Part shown: positions 6,627 to 63,731 of the stretch, piece by piece
Position numbering within the stretch: position 1 is the first letter of the stretch
How the letters are laid out: every line of letters starts with the position of its first letter
Origin: Acidobacteriota bacterium
GTDB lineage: Bacteria > Acidobacteriota > Vicinamibacteria > Vicinamibacterales > CAVVIG01
Direction of reading: 5' to 3'
Assembly: GCA_016195265.1 (NCBI GenBank)
Contig: JACPZW010000073.1
Location: 4,798-68,797 of the forward strand
DNA: 64,000 bases
Program-made: the position numbers and the translations under genes
Notes under the pieces: generated by a model
What the model was told of the DNA's origin: nothing
The model's input: only the letters and a program-made list of their open reading frames with translations
Database searches by the model: none

Positions 6627-6902
6627 GGCCACAGAGACACCGGGACACAGAGGCGCGCTGCAGATTCGGCGGGTCGGCCTGCCTCGCAGGCCGACCCGCA
6701 GCGCCGGATCGGACCGAGACGCGAACCTCGGATCAACCAACATTGGTTCGTGTCTCGGTCCGACTCCGGCGACGCCGCCGCTTCGCGGCGCCCGCCGAAT
6801 CTCGTTCACCGCGCTGATCGTGCGCGTTCTCACGCCGTCTCTTCTCGGTGTCTCCGTGTCTCCGTGGCCAATTTCCCTCCGTGGCCTCCGTGTCCTCCGT
6901 GG
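6627..6902. repeat. Structured palindromic intergenic element, copy A (core inverted relative to copies B and D)
   Basis: Inner inverted repeats GGCCACAGAGACACCGGGACAC / GTGTCTCCGTGTCTCCGTGGCC. Core 6661-6803: closing stem CAGATTCGGCGGG/CCCGCCGAATCT enclosing three hairpins (TCGGCCTGC-ctc-GCAGGCCGA; a ~25-bp stem CCGGATCGGACCGAGACGCGAACC...GGTTCGTGTCTCGGTCCGACTCCGG; CGCCGC-ttc-GCGGCG). Right outer flank is a CCTCCGTGG-type repeat. Confidence 0.8.
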
Positions 6903-10796: not shown

Positions 10797-11130
10797 GGCC
10801 ACGAAGCCACGAAGTCACGAAGAAGAAGGGGAATAAGCCACAGAGATCACTGAGACACAGAGGCGCGCGACCAGATTCGGCGGTCGCCGCGAAGCGGCGA
10901 CACCGCCGGAATCGGGCCGAGACGCGAGCCGTGGACCGGCAAACGCTGGCTCGCGTCTCGGCCCGATCCGGCGGTGGTCGTCGGCCTGCACGGCAGGCCG
11001 ACCCGCCGAATCTCGGTGAGCGCGCGGCGATCGACTGGATTCACGCTCTTCCTCCGTGCCTCTGTGCCTCTGTGGCCCATTTCCCTCTGCGCCCTCCGTG
11101 GCCTCCGTGGCCTCCGTGGCCTCCGTGGCC
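10797..11130. repeat. Structured palindromic intergenic element, copy B
   Basis: Left flank (CCACGAAG)n + GCCACAGAGATCACTGAGACACAGAGG. Core 10872-11014: CAGATTCGGCGG/CCGCCGAATCT closing TCGCCGC-gaa-GCGGCGA, a ~29-bp stem and GTCGGCCTGC-acg-GCAGGCCGAC. Right flank CCTCCGTGCCTCTGTGCCTCTGTGGCC + (GGCCTCCGT)x4. Fills the gap between 11141-12460 and 9970-10791. Confidence 0.8.
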
Positions 11131-17833: not shown

Positions 17834-17890
17834 GTAGGGCGGGTCCTTCTGGACCCGCCACTGTGCCGGGTCCGAAAGGACCCGGCCTAC
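17834..17890. repeat. REP-type hairpin pair (GTAGGGCGGGTCC-N4-GGACCCGCC ... GCCGGGTCC-N4-GGACCCGGCCTAC)
   Basis: Two 9-bp-stem hairpins in inverted orientation, lying in the spacer between 17904-19100 and 16644-17828. Confidence 0.85.
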
Positions 17891-19110: not shown

Positions 19111-20031
19111 TCAAGATCTGTAGGCCGGGTCCTTCTGGACCCGGCTGTCCGGCGGGCTGTCTGGCGGGTCCGAAAGGACCCGCCCTACCGCCGTCGCCCG
19201 CCCTACCGCCGTCGCCCGCCCTACCGCCGTCGCCCGCCCTACAGCCGTCGCCCGCCCTGCCGCCGTCGCCCGCCCTACAGCCGCGCGCGCCTTGAACACG
19301 CGGAACCGCCCGAGCCTGGTCATCTGCAGCACGTACTGGAGCGTCACGCCCAACGTCGCCAGCCCGTACTGCACGCTGCGCGCGAAGTTGATCGAGGACG
19401 CTTCGGCGAAGTACCGCGTGGGAATCGGCACGTCGCCGATCTTGAACCCGTGATACACGGCCTGCGCGAGCAACTGCGTGTCGAACACGAAGTCGTCCGA
19501 ATTGCCGTGATAGTCAATCGTTTCGAGCACGGCGCGCCGGTAGGCGCGGAATCCGGAATGGAAGTCGCCGAGGTTCTGTCCGAAGACGACGTTCTCCATC
19601 ACCGTCAGGACGCGGTTCGAGAGGTACTTGTAAAGCGGCATCCCGCCGTCGAGCGTCTCGCGGCGCGATCGCACGCGCGATCCGATGACGACGTCGCAAA
19701 TGCCCGTCGTCAAAAACCCGACCGCAAACGGCGTGACGCGCGGGTCGTACTGGTAATCCGGATGAATCATCACGACGACATCCGCGCCGCTCGCCAGCGC
19801 CGTGTCGTAGCAGATCTTCTGATTGGCGCCGTAGCCCTTGTTCCGCTCGTGCCGGATGACGCGGAGGCCGAGGCGCTCGGCCAGCGCGACGGTCCCATCC
19901 GTGCTGCAGTCGTCGCACAGCACGATCTCGTCCACAACGCCCGGCGGGATGTCGAGGACGGTACGTTCGAGGGTCGTCTCCGCGTTGTAGGCGGGCATCA
20001 CGACAATGACTTTCGTGGAGCCGGGCATCAT
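19111..20031 (-). CDS. Family 2 glycosyltransferase with repeat-encoded C-terminal tail
   Basis: [25 protein letters not shown]...[10 protein letters not shown]...[17 protein letters not shown] junction with 20028-21014. The last ~55 codons, (GRATAV)n + [24 protein letters not shown], are read from the 18-bp tandem repeat and REP hairpins. Confidence 0.8.
19120..19188. repeat. REP-type hairpin pair
   Basis: GTAGGCCGGGTCCttctGGACCCGGC ... GGCGGGTCCgaaaGGACCCGCCCTAC. Lies inside the 3' end of ORF 19111-20031. Confidence 0.85.
19189..19283. repeat. 18-bp tandem repeat x ~5 (CGCCGTCGCCCGCCCTAC), derived from the REP 3' tail
   Basis: Units at 19189, 19207, 19225, 19243 and 19261, with 1-2 substitutions in the fourth unit. 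Each ends in the GCCCGCCCTAC tail of the REP. Read in frame as (GRATAV)n. Confidence 0.85.
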
Positions 20032-22155: not shown

Positions 22156-22277
22156 CCACGGAGGACGCGGAGGACACGGAGGCGAAGAGGAATACGGCCA
22201 CAGCGGCGCTCCGCGCGCTTCTGTGCCCCGGTGACTCTGTGGCCCGTTCATCTTCTTCGCGGCTTCGTGGCTCCGTG
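22156..22277. repeat. Short (core-less) member of the same element family, copy C
   Basis: CCACGGAGGACGCGGAGGACACGGAGG ... GGCCACAG-(33 nt)-CTGTGGCC ... CTTCGCGGCTTCGTGGCTCCGTG. Same flank motifs as copies A, B and D but without the four-way core. Confidence 0.65.
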
Positions 22278-30717: not shown

Positions 30718-32735
30718 GACGGGACCTTGTAGGGCGGGTCCTTCTGGACCCGCCGGACCGGCCGGTCTGCCGGGTCCGAAAGGACCCGGCCTACATCACC
30801 TACGTCCGTTGCGTCCGATACGACCCGGCCTACGTCTTCACGCAGCGCGAGCGTCGCCGCGATCGTGTCGCACAAGCTGGTGGCGTCGAGGCCGTGCGCG
30901 TGCAGCACTTCGTCGTTGCGTCCGCACAGCGGCACGTCGGTCACGCCGAGCCGGCGCACGACGCGCTCGCCAGGCAGCGACAGCTCGGCGAGCGTCCGCA
31001 GCAGCATGTCGCCCTGGCCGCCGTGGATGAAATGGTTGTCCAGCGTGAACACGGCCGGCGCGTCGCGCACGATCGACGCGAACCAGCCCCGATCGATCCG
31101 GTTCAGCCACGGCAGGTTGACGACCGCGAGATGGATGTCGTGGCGCGCCTTCAGCAGCGCCGTCGCCCGGACGGCTTCCGAGAGCATCACGGGGCCGTAG
31201 GCAAAGACCACGCCGTCGCGGCCCGGGACGAGCGTGACGCCGCGGCCCTCGAGCAGCTCGTAATCGGCGGGCAGATCGAACGGCACGTCCCACGGGACGG
31301 AGACGAGCCGCAGGTAGACGCTGTCGAGCGTTCGATCCGCGCAGCCGTACCGCACGGCCATGTCGACTTCGCGTTCCGTGCTCGGCTCGATCAGCACAAG
31401 CCCGGGCACCGCCGACAGCGCGGCGATATCGCGCACGCACTGATGCGAATGGCCCGGACCGCCGGGCACGAGTCCGGCCAGCGAACCGACGTAGATCACC
31501 TTCGTGCGCTCGGTCGCGTTGTTGTAGATCTGCTCGTTCGGCCGATCCGAAAGAAAGCACGCGAACGAATGGACGATGGGCAGCAGGCCCTTCAGCGCGG
31601 CGCCGCCGGCCTGGGACACCATGTCCTGCTCGGCGATGCCGCACTCGACGAACCGCTCGGGGAATTCCGCCTCGAACGGCAGCAGCCCGGTGTCGAGCGC
31701 CAGGTCGGCGTCGAAGACCACGAGGCGCGGGTTGCGGCGGGCCTGCTCGACGAGCGCGCGCGAGTACGCCGCGACGAGACGCTGCGGACGCTGCGGCGCC
31801 GTGTGGTCCGGCCGCGGCGTGGACTCGAGCCGGACGGCGTCCGCGCGCATCGACGCCAGCGCCGCGTTCACGCGCGCGACGAGCTCCGGCAGCGCCTTCA
31901 GATACGTGTCGTCGTCCGGCGCGCCGCTGTGGAAGCGGTACAGCCGATCATCGGGCGAGAGCGCAGTGCCCTCCATGAACGAGACGCCGCGGCCTTTGAT
32001 CGTGTCGGCGATGATCGCCTTGGGCCGATCGTGGACCAGCGCCAGCGACGCGAGCGTCCGCGCGATCGCGCCCGTGTCGTGGCCGTCGACGCGGGCGATG
32101 TGCCAGCCGAAGCTGCGCAGCTTGGCTTCGAGATCGCCCAGGTCGCTCACGCGCGACACCCAGATGTCGGACTGAATCTTGTTGTGATCGACGATCGCCG
32201 TCAGGCCGCCGAGCCGCGTGTTGGCGGCGGACACGAGCGATTCCCAGAACTGCCCTTCCTGCAACTCGCCGTCACCGGTCAGCACGAACGCGCGGCCCTT
32301 GCCGCCCAGCACACGATTGGCGAGCAGCATGCCCTTCGCCTTCGAGACGCCCATGCCGAGCGATCCCGTGTTCGTCTCGATCGAGGGCGTGGAGACGTCG
32401 GGATGGCCCGGCAGGCCGTTCAGCCGGCGCAGCTCGTGGATCTTCTCGAACGGCAGCTTGCCGATCGCCGTCAGCACTGCGTACAACGCCGGCGCGTCGT
32501 GCCCCTTCGACGAAAAGAACACATCGTCGGCAGTCAGCTCGTTCAGGTACAACCAGCTGATGAGATCGAGACAGCTGAAGCTCGTGCCGATGTGCCCGGA
32601 GCCCGCGCGCGTGATCATGTAGAGCGCGTTGATGCGGCAGAGATCCGCGAAGACCGCCGTCTTGCGGACGGGATCCACGTCCAGCGCGCGCACGCGGCTG
32701 AACTCGGCCTGCGGGACGTACTGAAGATCAATCAT
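30714..32735 (-). CDS. Transketolase-family ThDP enzyme (N- and C-terminal halves fused), with REP-encoded C-terminal tail
   Basis: SGHIGTSFSCLDL...GSLGMGVSKAKG...LTGDGELQEGQFWES...CGIAEQDMVSQAGG...GPGHSHQCVRDIA. The last ~40 codons (GRVLSDPADRPVRRVQKDPPYKVPS) lie in REP hairpins. Confidence 0.8.
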   Translation of the reverse strand: MIDLQYVPQAEFSRVRALDVDPVRKTAVFADLCRINALYMITRAGSGHIGTSFSCLDLISWLYLNELTADDVFFSSKGHDAPALYAVLTAIGKLPFEKIHELRRLNGLPGHPDVSTPSIETNTGSLGMGVSKAKGMLLANRVLGGKGRAFVLTGDGELQEGQFWESLVSAANTRLGGLTAIVDHNKIQSDIWVSRVSDLGDLEAKLRSFGWHIARVDGHDTGAIARTLASLALVHDRPKAIIADTIKGRGVSFMEGTALSPDDRLYRFHSGAPDDDTYLKALPELVARVNAALASMRADAVRLESTPRPDHTAPQRPQRLVAAYSRALVEQARRNPRLVVFDADLALDTGLLPFEAEFPERFVECGIAEQDMVSQAGGAALKGLLPIVHSFACFLSDRPNEQIYNNATERTKVIYVGSLAGLVPGGPGHSHQCVRDIAALSAVPGLVLIEPSTEREVDMAVRYGCADRTLDSVYLRLVSVPWDVPFDLPADYELLEGRGVTLVPGRDGVVFAYGPVMLSEAVRATALLKARHDIHLAVVNLPWLNRIDRGWFASIVRDAPAVFTLDNHFIHGGQGDMLLRTLAELSLPGERVVRRLGVTDVPLCGRNDEVLHAHGLDATSLCDTIAATLALREDVGRVVSDATDVGDVGRVLSDPADRPVRRVQKDPPYKVPS
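30729..30833. repeat. REP-type hairpin pair plus a solo tail
   Basis: GTAGGGCGGGTCCttctGGACCCGCC ... GCCGGGTCCgaaaGGACCCGGCCTAC, then GACCCGGCCTAC at 30822-30833. Inside the 3' end of the transketolase ORF. Confidence 0.85.
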
Positions 32736-32767: not shown

Positions 32768-32868
32768 TGCAGGCCGGGTCCAAAAGGACCCGCCCTACGT
32801 CCCGTCACAGTCGGTACTGCACAGGCGGGTCCGAAAGGACCCGCCCTACGTCCCGTCACAGTTGGTAC
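32768..32868. repeat. REP hairpin unit duplicated as a ~50-bp direct repeat
   Basis: GG(C)CGGGTCC(a/g)aaaGGACCCGCCCTACGTCCCGTCACAGT(C/T)GGTAC occurs twice in tandem. Confidence 0.85.
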
Positions 32869-38588: not shown

Positions 38589-38778
38589 GTAGGCCGGGTC
38601 CTTGTGGACCCGGCTGACTCCGGCGGGTCCAAAAGGATCCGCCCTACATCGTCAGCTTTGTCCGGCGGGTCCAAAAGGACCCGCCCTACATCGTCAGCTT
38701 GTCCGGCGGGTCCGAAAGGACCCGCCCTACTCGCTACTCGCCAGATCTGTCCGGCGGGTCCACAAGGACCCGCCCTAC
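38589..38778. repeat. Array of five REP-type hairpins filling an entire intergenic spacer
   Basis: One GTAGGCCGGGTCCttgtGGACCCGGC followed by four direct copies of (T)GTCCGGCGGGTCC-N4-GGA(C/T)CCGCCCTAC at ~41-48-bp spacing. Confidence 0.85.
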
Positions 38779-43942: not shown

Positions 43943-44793
43943 TTCTTGACCTGTCCAACCTGTCCGGCGGGTCCCAGCGTCGCGAGCGAGTCGGCCAGCG
44001 TCGGCCGGCCCCGCCCGATCGCCTCGAAGAACCTGGATGCGTCGAGCGTGCGATCCACGCGGCCGCGCACGACCGGCACGACCGTGACGTCGAGATGAAG
44101 CTGGCGCGCGGCGGCGGTCAACAGATCGTACTTACTCAGCGCGTCACCGCCGACGTGATACAGACCCTCGAGCCATCGGCCGCCCGCCAGGGCGTCGGCG
44201 ATCAGATCGGAGAGCAGAGCCGCCGATACGCCCGTGAACCGGTAATCCGACAGCCCTTCCACCTGCGGGCCAGGATGCGCCGCGAGCCACTCGATCACGC
44301 CGCGGCCGCGTGGATTGCGACCGAAGAAGCTCGTGCGGATCGTCAGGTGCGGGGCGCCGAGCTCGCCGGTAAGTTTCGACCGGCCGTAGGCGTCACCGGG
44401 ATCCGGCGCGTCCGTCTCGCGATAGCCACCCCGGGCGCCGGAGAACACGCCGTCGGTGCTGATGTGCACGACCCGAGCCCGTCGCGCCGCGGCGCTCGCG
44501 GCCAGCCGGCGCGGAAACTCGCCGTTGACCGCGACGAGCTCCGCATCGGTCGCCGTGCCGAGCCCGATGGCGTTGATCACGACATCCGGCCGCGCTTCGT
44601 CGAGCGCGCGATCGAGCGTGCGCGGATCGGCGGCATCGAGGCTGGTGTTCAGCCACGTCACCGCGGCGCCCGACGGAACGTTACCCACCAGGCCCGCACG
44701 CGGCCTCGGGGCGCAGATCGTCATCTCGCGTGAGAGCCGGTCGGAGAGATAGCGACCCAGAAATCCGGTCGCGCCGAGGAGAAGCGCGGTCAT
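43918..44793 (-). CDS. RmlD-like NAD(P)-dependent sugar reductase (dTDP-4-dehydrorhamnose reductase family)
   Basis: MTALLLGATGFLGRYL...VINAIG...HISTDGVFSG...YGRSKLTGE. Confidence 0.75.
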   Translation of the reverse strand: MTALLLGATGFLGRYLSDRLSREMTICAPRPRAGLVGNVPSGAAVTWLNTSLDAADPRTLDRALDEARPDVVINAIGLGTATDAELVAVNGEFPRRLAASAAARRARVVHISTDGVFSGARGGYRETDAPDPGDAYGRSKLTGELGAPHLTIRTSFFGRNPRGRGVIEWLAAHPGPQVEGLSDYRFTGVSAALLSDLIADALAGGRWLEGLYHVGGDALSKYDLLTAAARQLHLDVTVVPVVRGRVDRTLDASRFFEAIGRGRPTLADSLATLGPAGQVGQVKKCGALSSN

Positions 44794-53471: not shown

Positions 53472-54151
53472 ACACCGCCCACGAGCTGGACGCCTGGGAA
53501 CGCGCCTACCGGGACTTCGAGACCCCGGCCGGGGAGATGCGCAAGTTCGGGCGCCGGTTGCACGCGCTCGGCGCGGACCGGCTCGATCTGTCGTCGCGCA
53601 TCCTGGAAATCTGCTGCGGGCGGGGCAACGCGCTCATCGCCTGGCAGCGCCTGGGGTTCCGCCGCGCGGTCGGGCTGGATCTGTCCTACGCGCTGCTGCG
53701 CCTGTCGAACGCCGGCGCGCCCCGGATCGTCGGCGACGTCCGCGCGATGCCCGTGGCCGACGCGTCGCAGGACATCGTCGCGGTCCACGGAGGGTTGCAT
53801 CATCTTCGGTCGCTCGAGGATCTCGAGGCGACGCTGGGTGAAATGCGCCGCGTGATCCGGCCCGGCGGGCACATCGTCATCGTGGAGCCGTGGTCGACGC
53901 CGTTTCTGACCGCGGTCCACGCGCTGTCGCGTCAGCCGCTGATCAGGCGGCTCTGGCAGAAGATGGACGCGTTCGAACGCATGTACGAACACGAGCAGAA
54001 GACCTACGACGCGTGGCTCGGACAGCCGGATGCGATCCTCGCGTTGGTGCACCGATATCTCACACCGCTCGTCCTTCATCGACGCTGGGGCAAGCTGATG
54101 GTGCTGGCGCGCCGCGCGCCGGAGCGGACGGGAGCGCGGCGTGTCCGGTAG
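53468..54151 (+). CDS. Class I SAM-dependent methyltransferase
   Basis: ILEICCGRGNAL (motif I), DIVAVHGGLHHL, IRPGGHIVIVEP. ATGA overlap at 53468. Confidence 0.75.
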   Translation: MNTAHELDAWERAYRDFETPAGEMRKFGRRLHALGADRLDLSSRILEICCGRGNALIAWQRLGFRRAVGLDLSYALLRLSNAGAPRIVGDVRAMPVADASQDIVAVHGGLHHLRSLEDLEATLGEMRRVIRPGGHIVIVEPWSTPFLTAVHALSRQPLIRRLWQKMDAFERMYEHEQKTYDAWLGQPDAILALVHRYLTPLVLHRRWGKLMVLARRAPERTGARRVR

Positions 54152-57940: not shown

Positions 57941-58023
57941 GTAGGCCGGGGCCTTTCGGTTTTGTAGGCCGGGGTCCTTTCGGACCCGGCGTGGTCTGGC
58001 GGGTCCAAAAGGACCCGCCCTAC
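57941..58023. repeat. REP-type hairpins between convergent genes
   Basis: GTAGGCCGGGGCCTTTCGG (degenerate), GTAGGCCGGGGTCCtttcGGACCCGGC, GGCGGGTCCaaaaGGACCCGCCCTAC. Confidence 0.8.
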
Positions 58024-62615: not shown

Positions 62616-62628
62616 CAGAAGAAATGAA

Positions 62629-62945
62629 CCACTGAGGACACGGAGGACACGGAGGAAATCCGCAGAGGAGACACGGAAGAATACAGAGTGAAACGGGCCA
62701 CAGAGGCACAGGGGCACGGAGACAGGAGTCCCGGAGCTTGTGTTCGACGCGGCGCCGCGAAGCGGCGTCGGTCGGCCGAACGCCGGTGCGCAAGCGACGA
62801 CTGTAACTCGGCCTTCGTCGTTTGCGCTCCAGCGTTCGGCCGCCCAGCGCGGCGTGCTCCGCACGCCGCCCGCGTCGAACACCTCTGTGTCTCGGTGTCT
62901 CTGTGGCTATTCACATCTTCTCCGCGTCCTCCGTGTCCTCCGTGG
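62629..62945. repeat. Structured palindromic intergenic element, copy D (most complete; divergent core sequence, same architecture)
   Basis: Outer IR CCACTGAGGACACGGAGGACACGGAGG / CCTCCGTGTCCTCCGTGG. Inner IR GGCCACAGAGGCACAGG... / ...GTGTCTCTGTGGC. Core 62740-62882: perfect 13-bp closing stem GTGTTCGACGCGG/CCGCGTCGAACAC enclosing CGCCGC-gaa-GCGGCG, a ~27-bp imperfect stem and GCGGCGTGC-tcc-GCACGCCGC. Confidence 0.8.
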
Positions 62946-62954
62946 TTACTCATC

Positions 62955-63731
62955 TCACGCTTTCCCCCCGAGCGCGGTACTGGCCGGAATGCGCACCTGC
63001 ACCTGCCGTCCCAATTGCGATCGCCGCGTCCGCGTCAGCCCCCACAGGAACCACCGCATGTACTCGCCGGTCCACGGGCCGAGACGGAACGTCGACTGCC
63101 CGCCGTACAGCCGATCGATCGACACGATCGGCACCTCGCCGAGCGACATTCCCAGCAACTGCGCCTTGATCGACATCTCGAACGCGACGGCCCAGCCAAT
63201 CGGCCGCGACTCCAGATGGAAGCGGTCGAACTGATCGCGCCGGAACATCTTGATGCCCGTCGTGCAGTCGGTCATCAGCGATCCGGCCAGCCAGCGGAAC
63301 AACCGGTTCGCGATGCGCGACAGAATCCCGCCGACGAGCGACCCGCCCAGACGCCGCCCGCCGTGCGCGTAGCGCGTGCAGCTGACGAACTCGCAGCCCT
63401 GGTCCATCAGCGCCAGCATGTCCTCGATCGCCAGCACGGGTCCGACTTCATCGGCGGCGAAGATCAGGACATAGCGCCCGGCCGCCGCCGCGACGCCGGC
63501 GCGAATGGCGTTCACGACGCCCCGCCCCAGCGTGTTGTGTACGGCGCGTACCGGCTGGCCCGGCGGCAGTCCCGCGACGACGCGCACGCTGTCATCGTCA
63601 GGCGTGTCGTGGACGATGACGACTTCGTACGGCACGTCGACGACGGCGCGCAGCATCTTGAGCATGATGCGCAGGTTGATGCCCTCGTTGCGGACCGGCA
63701 TCAGCACCGTGAGGATCAGATCGCTCGCCAT
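62955..63731 (-). CDS. GT2, dolichyl/polyprenyl-phosphate sugar synthase-like
   Basis: LTVLMPVRNEGINL...VIVHDTPDDDS...FAADEVGP...MTDCTTGIKMF. Confidence 0.75.
   Translation of the reverse strand: MASDLILTVLMPVRNEGINLRIMLKMLRAVVDVPYEVVIVHDTPDDDSVRVVAGLPPGQPVRAVHNTLGRGVVNAIRAGVAAAAGRYVLIFAADEVGPVLAIEDMLALMDQGCEFVSCTRYAHGGRRLGGSLVGGILSRIANRLFRWLAGSLMTDCTTGIKMFRRDQFDRFHLESRPIGWAVAFEMSIKAQLLGMSLGEVPIVSIDRLYGGQSTFRLGPWTGEYMRWFLWGLTRTRRSQLGRQVQVRIPASTALGGKA

Follow-up and report, generated by a model that had tools for sequence, protein, structure and literature searches.

The 64,000-nt stretch of the Acidobacteriota contig JACPZW010000073.1 analysed here (referred to as the window, with position 1 as its first letter) contains four copies, A to D, of a palindromic intergenic repeat, and copy D, located at 62629-62945, is the main subject of this work. 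These elements are probably a composite, non-coding palindromic DNA repeat that is mobile or was mobile until recently. The family to which they belong is real and abundant and appears to be largely undescribed, and it behaves as mobile DNA, as indicated by its insertions, near-identical copies within one genome, random orientation, and mosaic layering. The evidence speaks for an unusual mobile repeat and not for a new RNA gene, and a strand-specific RNA is not supported by it.

The copies had been located in a preliminary description of the window, and we confirmed all four of them, at 6627-6902 (A), 10797-11130 (B), 22156-22277 (C), and 62629-62945 (D). In the architecture that we propose, foldback arms, the "host", would carry a "guest" unit at their apex. 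This guest unit, of approximately 140-190 nt, would comprise GCGCGC boxes, a closing stem, and hairpins of 6 bp, about 30 bp, and 8-10 bp, while the host arms would be built from tandem units of 7-9 nt, such as CACNGAG, CACGGAGG, and CACGAAG, or CAGGAG, CACAAAGG, and CGCAGAG in other copies. The composite would then spread as a single unit, possibly moved in trans by an enzyme, or by a process of the host, recognising DNA folded into hairpins or cruciforms. Hairpin apices may serve as landing pads for further elements, giving rise to a Russian-doll layering, and the copies in the operon described here would be passengers.

Insertion sites and dispersal of the family

Relatives of site D were found through the closest homologues of the adjacent epimerase, with protein identities of 94% (locus L367), 92% (L368 and L369), and 88% (L370). 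In L367, an orthologous element of 337 nt occupies the site in an orientation matching that of the window. The site is empty in L368 and L369, where the GT2 and epimerase genes overlap by 4 nt, and in L370, where a gap of 2 nt lies between them; the empty sites read either GTGA or the 2-nt gap. The gene order DegT-GT2-epimerase-methyltransferase is kept in the relatives with an empty site. Site C was found in contigs of five relatives whose DegT proteins are 90-93% identical, and the element is absent from all five: GNAT and DegT overlap at ATGA in four of them (L371-L374), and in the fifth (L375) a 51-nt spacer that lacks the element separates them. One of these loci, L372, belongs to the metagenome-assembled genome (MAG) JAIQFX01, in which the family is present elsewhere (L001, L009, and L052).

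Because the genes of close relatives overlap at these positions, the apparent operon "spacers" at C and D are elements inserted at stop/start overlaps, and the reading frames of both flanking genes are intact at both insertions. All four sites adjoin co-directional minus-strand genes on both sides, within a polysaccharide-biosynthesis cluster (carbamoyltransferase/methyltransferase, PMT_2/DUF4330, GNAT/DegT at site C, and GT2/epimerase at site D), while at C and D the spacer is the element itself. At site B, the locus L253 of the closest syntenic genome (JACPZV010000572.1, 505-600; 75-85% nucleotide identity) carries three repetitive extragenic palindromic (REP) units of the GTAG type instead, and two different repeat families thus share one niche. 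A 74-kb contig (L366) starts inside an element, as expected of an assembly-breaking repeat.

Outside the window, many dispersed copies were found. The exact 25-nt pattern of the 5' side of the core occurs at 12 loci in Acidobacteria MAGs, a 23-nt version of it in at least 120 soil-metagenome contigs, and the 3'-side pattern at 32 genome loci, including eight in one MAG and seven in another. These exact-pattern searches yielded 85 complete cores, 72 of them unique and most of them 130-139 nt long. Eight copies in the MAG CAVTHG01 lie at unrelated loci, with core identities of 93-97% inside each of two clusters. Family-wide, the elements adjoin all kinds of genes.

The family is also modular. 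Truncated cores recur, consisting of hairpin 1 alone or of hairpins 1 and 3 alone, and one type of core can be enclosed by different arm families (CACNGAG, CAGGAG, CACAAAGG, CACGAAG, and CGCAGAG), nested in the manner of Russian dolls. The centres of core-less foldbacks are A/T-rich, which assigns the GCGCGC boxes beside the closing stem to the "guest" core and not to the "host" arms. In one subfamily (L139, L157, L205, L011, L143, L199, L214, and L219), an asymmetric segment containing GTGGCTGAAGCGCGC is conserved between arm and core, on one side only. Many metagenomic copies (for example L148, L150, L167, L236, L362, and L341) have an additional outermost inverted layer, GTCACGCTGCGATCG ... 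CGATCGCAGCGTGAC, around the arms; this GTCACGCTGCGATCG layer was looked for in the window and is absent from it. A copy of the core whose closing stem is disrupted is found in a 2.4-kb contig binned as Limnocylindria, Chloroflexota (L004, DASYUC010000033.1), where mis-binning or transfer is possible. Among viral sequences, the core was absent from IMG/VR; the arm motif occurs in eight viral or proviral IMG/VR contigs (L333-L340), two of which carry both arms about 100 nt apart. Nothing similar to element B or to a simple foldback was found among the PLSDB plasmids.

The conserved fold and its strand symmetry

Elements A, B, and D share a core of 140 nt, composed of a closing stem and three hairpins, located at the apex of inverted CACNGAG-type octamer arms. 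In D, the outer 5' arm AACCACTGAGGACACGGAGGACACGGAGG, made of GGAGG-type nonamers (62627-62659), forms an inverted repeat, 88% complementary, with the outer 3' arm ending in CCTCCGTGTCCTCCGTGGTT (62915-62947), and the inner 5' arm GGCCACAGAGGCACAGGGGCACGGAG, made of CACNGAG octamers (62696-62721), pairs in the fold with the inner 3' arm CTCTGTGTCTCGGTGTCTCTGTG (62883-62905). The core lies on the plus strand. The 5' half of its closing stem, GTGTTCGACGCGG (62740-62752), is followed by hairpin 1, CGCCGC-GAA-GCGGCG (62753-62767), by a long hairpin that is the variable, covarying part (62770-62845), by hairpin 3, GCGGCGTGC-TCC-GCACGCCGC (62849-62869), and by the 3' half of the closing stem, CCGCGTCGAACAC (62870-62882). 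Element A has its core at 6662-6802 on the minus strand, with a GGAGG-type outer arm on the high-coordinate side only. Element B has its core at 10873-11013 on the plus strand, and its outer arms consist of CACGAAG on one side and of four CCTCCGTGG units on the other. Element C consists of arms only, around the centre GGCGC-TCC-GCGCGC, without a core.

The single strands of A, B, and D each form one long imperfect hairpin, with z-scores from -10 to -14.6 and a multibranch apex of closing stem, 6-bp hairpin, hairpin of about 30 bp, and 9-bp hairpin, in agreement with the architecture described earlier; C is weakly structured (z = -1.8). A covariance model built from 70 copies outside the window matches only A (minus strand, 129 bits), B (plus, 130 bits), and D (plus, 70.6 bits, E = 1e-12) within it. 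D is therefore a member of the family, and core A has the opposite orientation to cores B and D, as had been claimed. The accompanying claim that the flanks keep their orientation is true but trivial, since the flanks are palindromic.

Compensatory changes, first seen between the copies of the window, proved to be general. Across 70 distinct cores, standard pairs make up 94.8% of the pair cells, and 22 of the 44 pairs carry changes on both sides. Double-change cells number 252, compared with 75 in column shuffles, none of 500 shuffles reaching the observed value, and compared with 36-45 when the partners are slid by one to three columns. The closing stem of D, which differs from that of A and B, recurs in the independent copies L098 and L112, and for this reason D represents a subfamily. 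A swapped hairpin-1 stem is also present in copies outside the core-pattern selection. Hairpin 3 shows a compensated T-A to G-C change in L073 and, in the L367 orthologue of D, a compensated G-C to C-G swap (GCGGCCTGC...GCAGGCCGC), and in L006 (2100-2235) all four helices differ in sequence with the architecture unchanged. The compensatory changes are thus real and significant, and they reflect the maintenance of a DNA palindrome, not of a strand-specific RNA.

This interpretation follows from the behaviour of the two strands. The minimum free energy of the core, top minus bottom strand, differs by a mean of -0.02 kcal/mol (p = 0.76), and of 27 co-directional copies, only 13 have a sense transcript with the better fold (p = 0.66). 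G-U mispairs number 72 and A-C mispairs 52, with nearly all of the excess coming from one position; a recurrent G-U pair occurs at columns 63-91. According to gene calls made with a GC3-based heuristic, the core is sense to both neighbouring genes in 16 cases, antisense in 17, between convergent genes in 23, and between divergent genes in seven.

The loops behave accordingly. Hairpin 1 had been described as conserved, which holds for its stem family-wide but not for its loop: of 22 copies sampled independently by way of the 3' side, eight have a GAA loop and five the exact complement TTC, and the remainder vary. An identification of hairpin 1 with the ultra-stable d(GCGAAGC) mini-hairpin was dropped on these counts. 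Compared with the window copies, L362, L355, L341, L344, and L352 have the TTC loop with the rest of the core unflipped; because the loop is complemented while the remaining core keeps its orientation, individual hairpin loops must flip.

Larger segments flip as well. At the orthologous locus of L205 and L157, the flanking genes are 93-94% identical and the outer arms are in place, while the inner segment, consisting of the asymmetric GTGGCTGAAGCGCGC stretch and the core, is inverted; this is a between-species comparison. In all seven locus pairs with flanks at least 97% identical, the orientation is shared, and flipping must for this reason be slow. DNA palindromes are expected to undergo both loop flipping and inversion between short inverted arms, which explains the inversion of core A relative to B and D. 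Sequence drift was followed at site D, where the copies of the window and of L367 are 82% identical and the adjacent epimerase gene is 91% identical. The rate of change in the orthologous copies is about double that of the neighbouring gene, with pairing retained by compensatory change, and both fold to about -200 kcal/mol.

Arms, ends, and the search for a mobilising enzyme

The arms extend far beyond the core. The 25-nt arm GCCAC-N-GAGACAC-N-GAGACAC-N-GAG, with 22 specified bases, was matched in at least 120 species-level genomes, whereas by our own arithmetic chance would give about 0.07 matches across the genome collection. These genomes represent at least seven phyla, namely Acidobacteriota, Planctomycetota, Spirochaetota (including Leptospiraceae), Nitrospirota, Chloroflexota, Bacillota, and Verrucomicrobiota, and the arm is also found in Desulfuromonadales, including Geobacter, among other groups, at loci spanning about 30% to 75% GC. 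Among the matches listed, the complementary partner arm typically follows 4-393 nt after the first (median 42), and the two arms are complementary at every base, the variable position included. The 5' arm is always the purine-rich one, with almost no T, and is preceded by an A-rich run and TT(A). No paper containing the arm strings and no description of the core were found in literature searches.

Arms of this kind also enclose other palindromes in other phyla, such as GGGAATCCAGGG-type repeats in a Nitrospiria MAG (L027, about 1890-2110), and nearby spacers (L262 and L037) hold other tandem 7-8-mers, for example CAGACTT and CCCAAGC repeats. Whichever strand is read, purines dominate the 5' arm, which has almost no T, and pyrimidines dominate the 3' arm, which has almost no A, in an order that is always F...R (for example 62629-62739 and 62883-62947 in D). 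Arms free of T or of A cannot hold stop codons, and the near-absence of these bases makes stops rare. The small open reading frames (ORFs) that had been called spurious, such as MSNHGGHGG...SSVSSVSSVV, are indeed present in the elements as frame-inconsistent by-products; because the repeat units are 8-9 nt long with a variable position, no conserved reading frame exists. Within the window, CCACRGAGG occurs 11 times against 0.8 expected, with ten occurrences inside elements and the remaining one at 53785, and the two-unit CACNGAG pattern CACNGAGRCACNGAG occurs 11 times against 0.17 expected, always inside elements.

The ends of the elements, (A)ACCAC... or GCCAC..., lie close to coding sequence. 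The stop codon of the upstream gene touches or overlaps the element terminus in the form (A/T)TGA-AACCAC, in the window at 6905-6907/6902, 11141-11143/11136, and 62955-62957, and in L367 at 2235-2250. The termini carry ATGA...TCAT, that is, the tetranucleotide of the stop/start overlap at the empty C sites. In the dinucleotides that precede 131 arms, TT (23), TA (22), and TG (14) follow no rule, and a TA target duplication of the IS630 or Correia type is not supported by them. An integron attC identity (RYYYAAC ... GTTRRRY, arrayed after every cassette) was rejected, as the ends AATGAAC/CAC and GTGGTTAC are off the consensus and only four elements are present in 64 kb.

A GTAG tag occurs in the window as part of another family. 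GTAG-tagged REP units (GTAGGGCGGGTCC-nnnn-GGACCCGCC) are a second, unrelated repeat, with 24 matches against 2 expected, and form BIME-like intergenic clusters in the same gene cluster at 17834-17890, 19120-19188, 30729-30833, 32769-32849, 38589-38778, 43962-43974, and 57941-58023. In an Acidobacteria gp18 MAG, a RAYT-like HUH/Y1 ORF (..VMPNHVHVVV..YTLNNPVK..; L015, 3592-4275, minus strand) is surrounded by GTAG palindromes and constitutes a REPtron.

The preliminary description had offered a mobile element resembling a MITE (a miniature transposable element with inverted repeats) as one reading. The dispersed copies, the empty C and D sites, and the near-identical intragenomic copies support this reading in substance; a clean duplication and a parent transposase were not found, and the family is for this reason no textbook MITE. 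These and several further observations weigh against mobility as the explanation. No unambiguous target-site duplication was seen at the copies examined, including C: in L367, TGATGA stands on both sides of the element, but the termini themselves carry ATGA...TCAT, and when boundaries and duplications were mapped for eight copies of one MAG, the layers blurred the ends. No autonomous element with matching ends was found, the partner arm never being more than 400 nt away at the 120 loci listed. A regular-expression search for HUH/Y1 found no transposase flanked by the arms in 2.47 Mb of collected loci, where the sole HUH/Y1 (RAYT-like) ORF is flanked by GTAG REPs and not by these arms. Many within-genome copies are only 76-87% identical, and much of the family must therefore be old. 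The exact patterns used to gather copies skew the sample towards conserved subfamilies, and the orientation counts depend on heuristic gene calls. Finally, the four-helix architecture is kept amid free sequence change to an extent beyond that usually reported for selfish repeats, and such strong conservation could mean a host function.

A composite mobile palindrome is nevertheless the favoured explanation. Given that no clear target duplication was found, a DDE transposase would be a less fitting means of movement than a single-strand, HUH/Y1-like route. More tentatively, the tandem-octamer foldback arms, together with their CAGGAG, CACGAAG, and other siblings, may form a new multi-phylum class of mobile palindromes, one that makes no target duplication, depends on a structure-specific enzyme, targets stop/start overlaps, and uses the apex both as a landing pad for guest palindromes, such as the acidobacterial four-helix core, and as a pivot for inversion in place.

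Alternative explanations and known systems

The rival that survives best, although unlikely, is an RNA module selected by the host, in which the hairpins would be kept to segment a polycistronic mRNA through RNase III processing, 3'-end protection, attenuation, or bidirectional termination, with mobility being incidental. All four window copies lie between co-directional genes, the family is enriched between convergent and depleted between divergent genes (23 versus 7), and the folds are extremely stable; moreover, simple foldbacks have an A-rich run before and, by symmetry, a T-rich run after them, like bidirectional terminators, and the sense strands of A, C, and D carry moderately U-rich tails. 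However, the sense strand has no folding advantage, a scan for U-tract terminators detected nothing canonical above chance, and an unrelated REP cluster can occupy the same spacer. The operon of close relatives has overlapping genes and no element, and such a module must be dispensable, since those relatives run the same operon without it. If the elements are mobile repeats, an RNA processing or stability role, another reading of the preliminary description, is plausible only as a secondary one, a by-product of being transcribed: on the transcript, the copies would fold into inter-cistronic hairpins of -180 to -240 kcal/mol. Translational coupling would probably be broken by these hairpins, which may also serve as RNase III sites, barriers to 3'-exonucleases, or weak attenuators.

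Less likely still is the possibility that the octamer arms are arrays of binding sites for a nucleoid or global regulator of the IHF/HU kind, their palindromic layout representing paired sites and not hairpins. A precedent exists in Geobacter metallireducens, where Aklujkar et al. (2009) described pairs of sites on opposite strands, 21 with three tandem TCTCCGTS[Y] units and eight with five tandem MTYCTGA units, and read them as putative binding sites of global regulators, possibly IHF/HU (PMC2700814). Arms with at least three tandem TCTCCGTS[Y] units and an opposite-strand partner at variable distance, as in the class 2/3 definition of that genome, are also found in the window (6844-6866 with 6628-6652, 11052-11074 with 10848-10862, and 62883-62905 with 62699-62721), and CAGGAG arms, the counterpart of the MTYCTGA type, occur in related loci. 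The occurrence of the same 25-nt arm across about 30-75% GC and many phyla also argues for sequence-specific recognition. On the other hand, the arms are always arranged F...R and are complementary base-for-base, including the variable position, different arm families interchange around the same core, and no candidate protein emerged. The sites are, furthermore, insertions absent from close relatives, which would be odd for a regulon.

A strand-specific structured non-coding RNA (ncRNA) gene or riboregulator, encoded by the four-way-junction core, was another reading of the preliminary description, and it is largely refuted and now very improbable. It could draw on the significant covariation, on the architecture kept while the sequence diverges, on the recurrent G-U pair at columns 63-91, and on the asymmetric GTGGCTGAAGCGCGC conserved 5' of the core in one subfamily. 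Against it stand the random orientation relative to genes, the equal stability of the two strands, loops that are unconserved and flip to their exact complement, a core that inverts in place between close relatives, and orthologous sites from which the core is missing. A scan for sigma-70-like promoters found nothing above chance, and the U-tract scan gave the core no terminator; a search of the whole window against Rfam at gathering score gave no match, and one around D at an E-value threshold gave only generic hairpin noise from miRNA models.

An equally improbable reading is a programmed inverton, with the arms as recombination sites and core flipping as a toggle for the downstream polysaccharide genes: polysaccharide loci are classic targets of phase variation, the inner segment of L205/L157 is inverted between inverted repeats with arms and flanking genes fixed, thus occurring in both orientations, and cores A and B, 4 kb apart in one cluster, have opposite orientations, but the seven locus pairs with flanks at least 97% identical share their orientation, the core lacks a promoter, no recombinase gene was seen beside the copies, and the elements adjoin all kinds of genes.

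Understood as mobile DNA, the elements are of interest in several respects. They fill intergenic spacers in soil Acidobacteria, a phylum that is among the most abundant and least tractable in soil, and they affect annotation by creating spurious ORFs of the "...SSVSSVV" or "HGGHGG" type and by breaking assemblies. Their hairpins of about -200 kcal/mol split translationally coupled genes and yet are tolerated, which makes them natural probes of operon expression. A nested, invertible palindrome that shows no clear target duplication, has arms distributed from Leptospiraceae to Geobacter to Acidobacteria, and has no known transposase points to an uncharacterised mobilisation mechanism.

In behaviour, the family resembles both REP/BIME/REPIN elements and MITEs, but it lacks what defines them, namely a GTAG tag, a RAYT, a clear duplication, and a parent insertion sequence (IS). 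REP/BIME/REPIN elements of E. coli and Pseudomonas, which are mobilised by RAYT proteins of the HUH/Y1 type, are likewise intergenic, palindromic, clustered or mosaic, and located preferentially downstream of genes; they also retain hairpin pairing by compensatory change, show no clear target duplication, and occupy the same niche, as seen at site B in L253. The present elements differ from them in having no GTAG/CGTC tag, in units of 120-340 nt instead of the 20-40 nt of a REP, in tandem-octamer arms, in a four-helix junction core instead of a simple hairpin, and in that no association with RAYT was found.

MITEs such as the Correia/NEMIS elements of Neisseria, ERIC, Nezha, and Chunjie are similarly short and non-coding, have inverted ends, lie within operons without destroying genes, are co-transcribed as long hairpins, and show filled and empty orthologous sites. 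Correia elements are also RNase III substrates. With terminal inverted repeats (arms 88% complementary), a length of 120-340 nt, no coding capacity, and dispersed copies, the window elements have several of the properties by which MITEs are recognised; unlike MITEs, they show no clean TA or 9-bp duplication, have no known cognate IS, and combine ends made of tandem short repeats with guest-in-host nesting. Identity with Chunjie is ruled out, as this Geobacter MITE is A+T-rich and has 9-bp direct repeats (PMC3184786).

A more distant likeness connects the family with eukaryotic foldback elements, the flip/flop of parvovirus inverted terminal repeats, and hairpin-loop inversions in chloroplasts, where long inverted termini are built of tandem sub-repeats and an asymmetric interior occurs in both orientations. 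This is an analogy only, with no kinship of sequence or protein, and the window elements are chromosomal, bacterial, and non-replicative.

The closest counterpart in sequence is provided by the class 2/3 "predicted global regulator binding sites" of G. metallireducens, in which three TCTCCGTS[Y] units correspond to the CACGGAGA arms and five MTYCTGA units to the CAGGAG arms, again as opposite-strand pairs at variable distance (PMC2700814). Those sites differ in that they were described in a single genome and read as protein-binding, with no core, mobility, or cross-phylum spread reported (PMC2700814). With the palindromes described here, the Geobacter "global regulator sites" of 2009 are reopened for reinterpretation.

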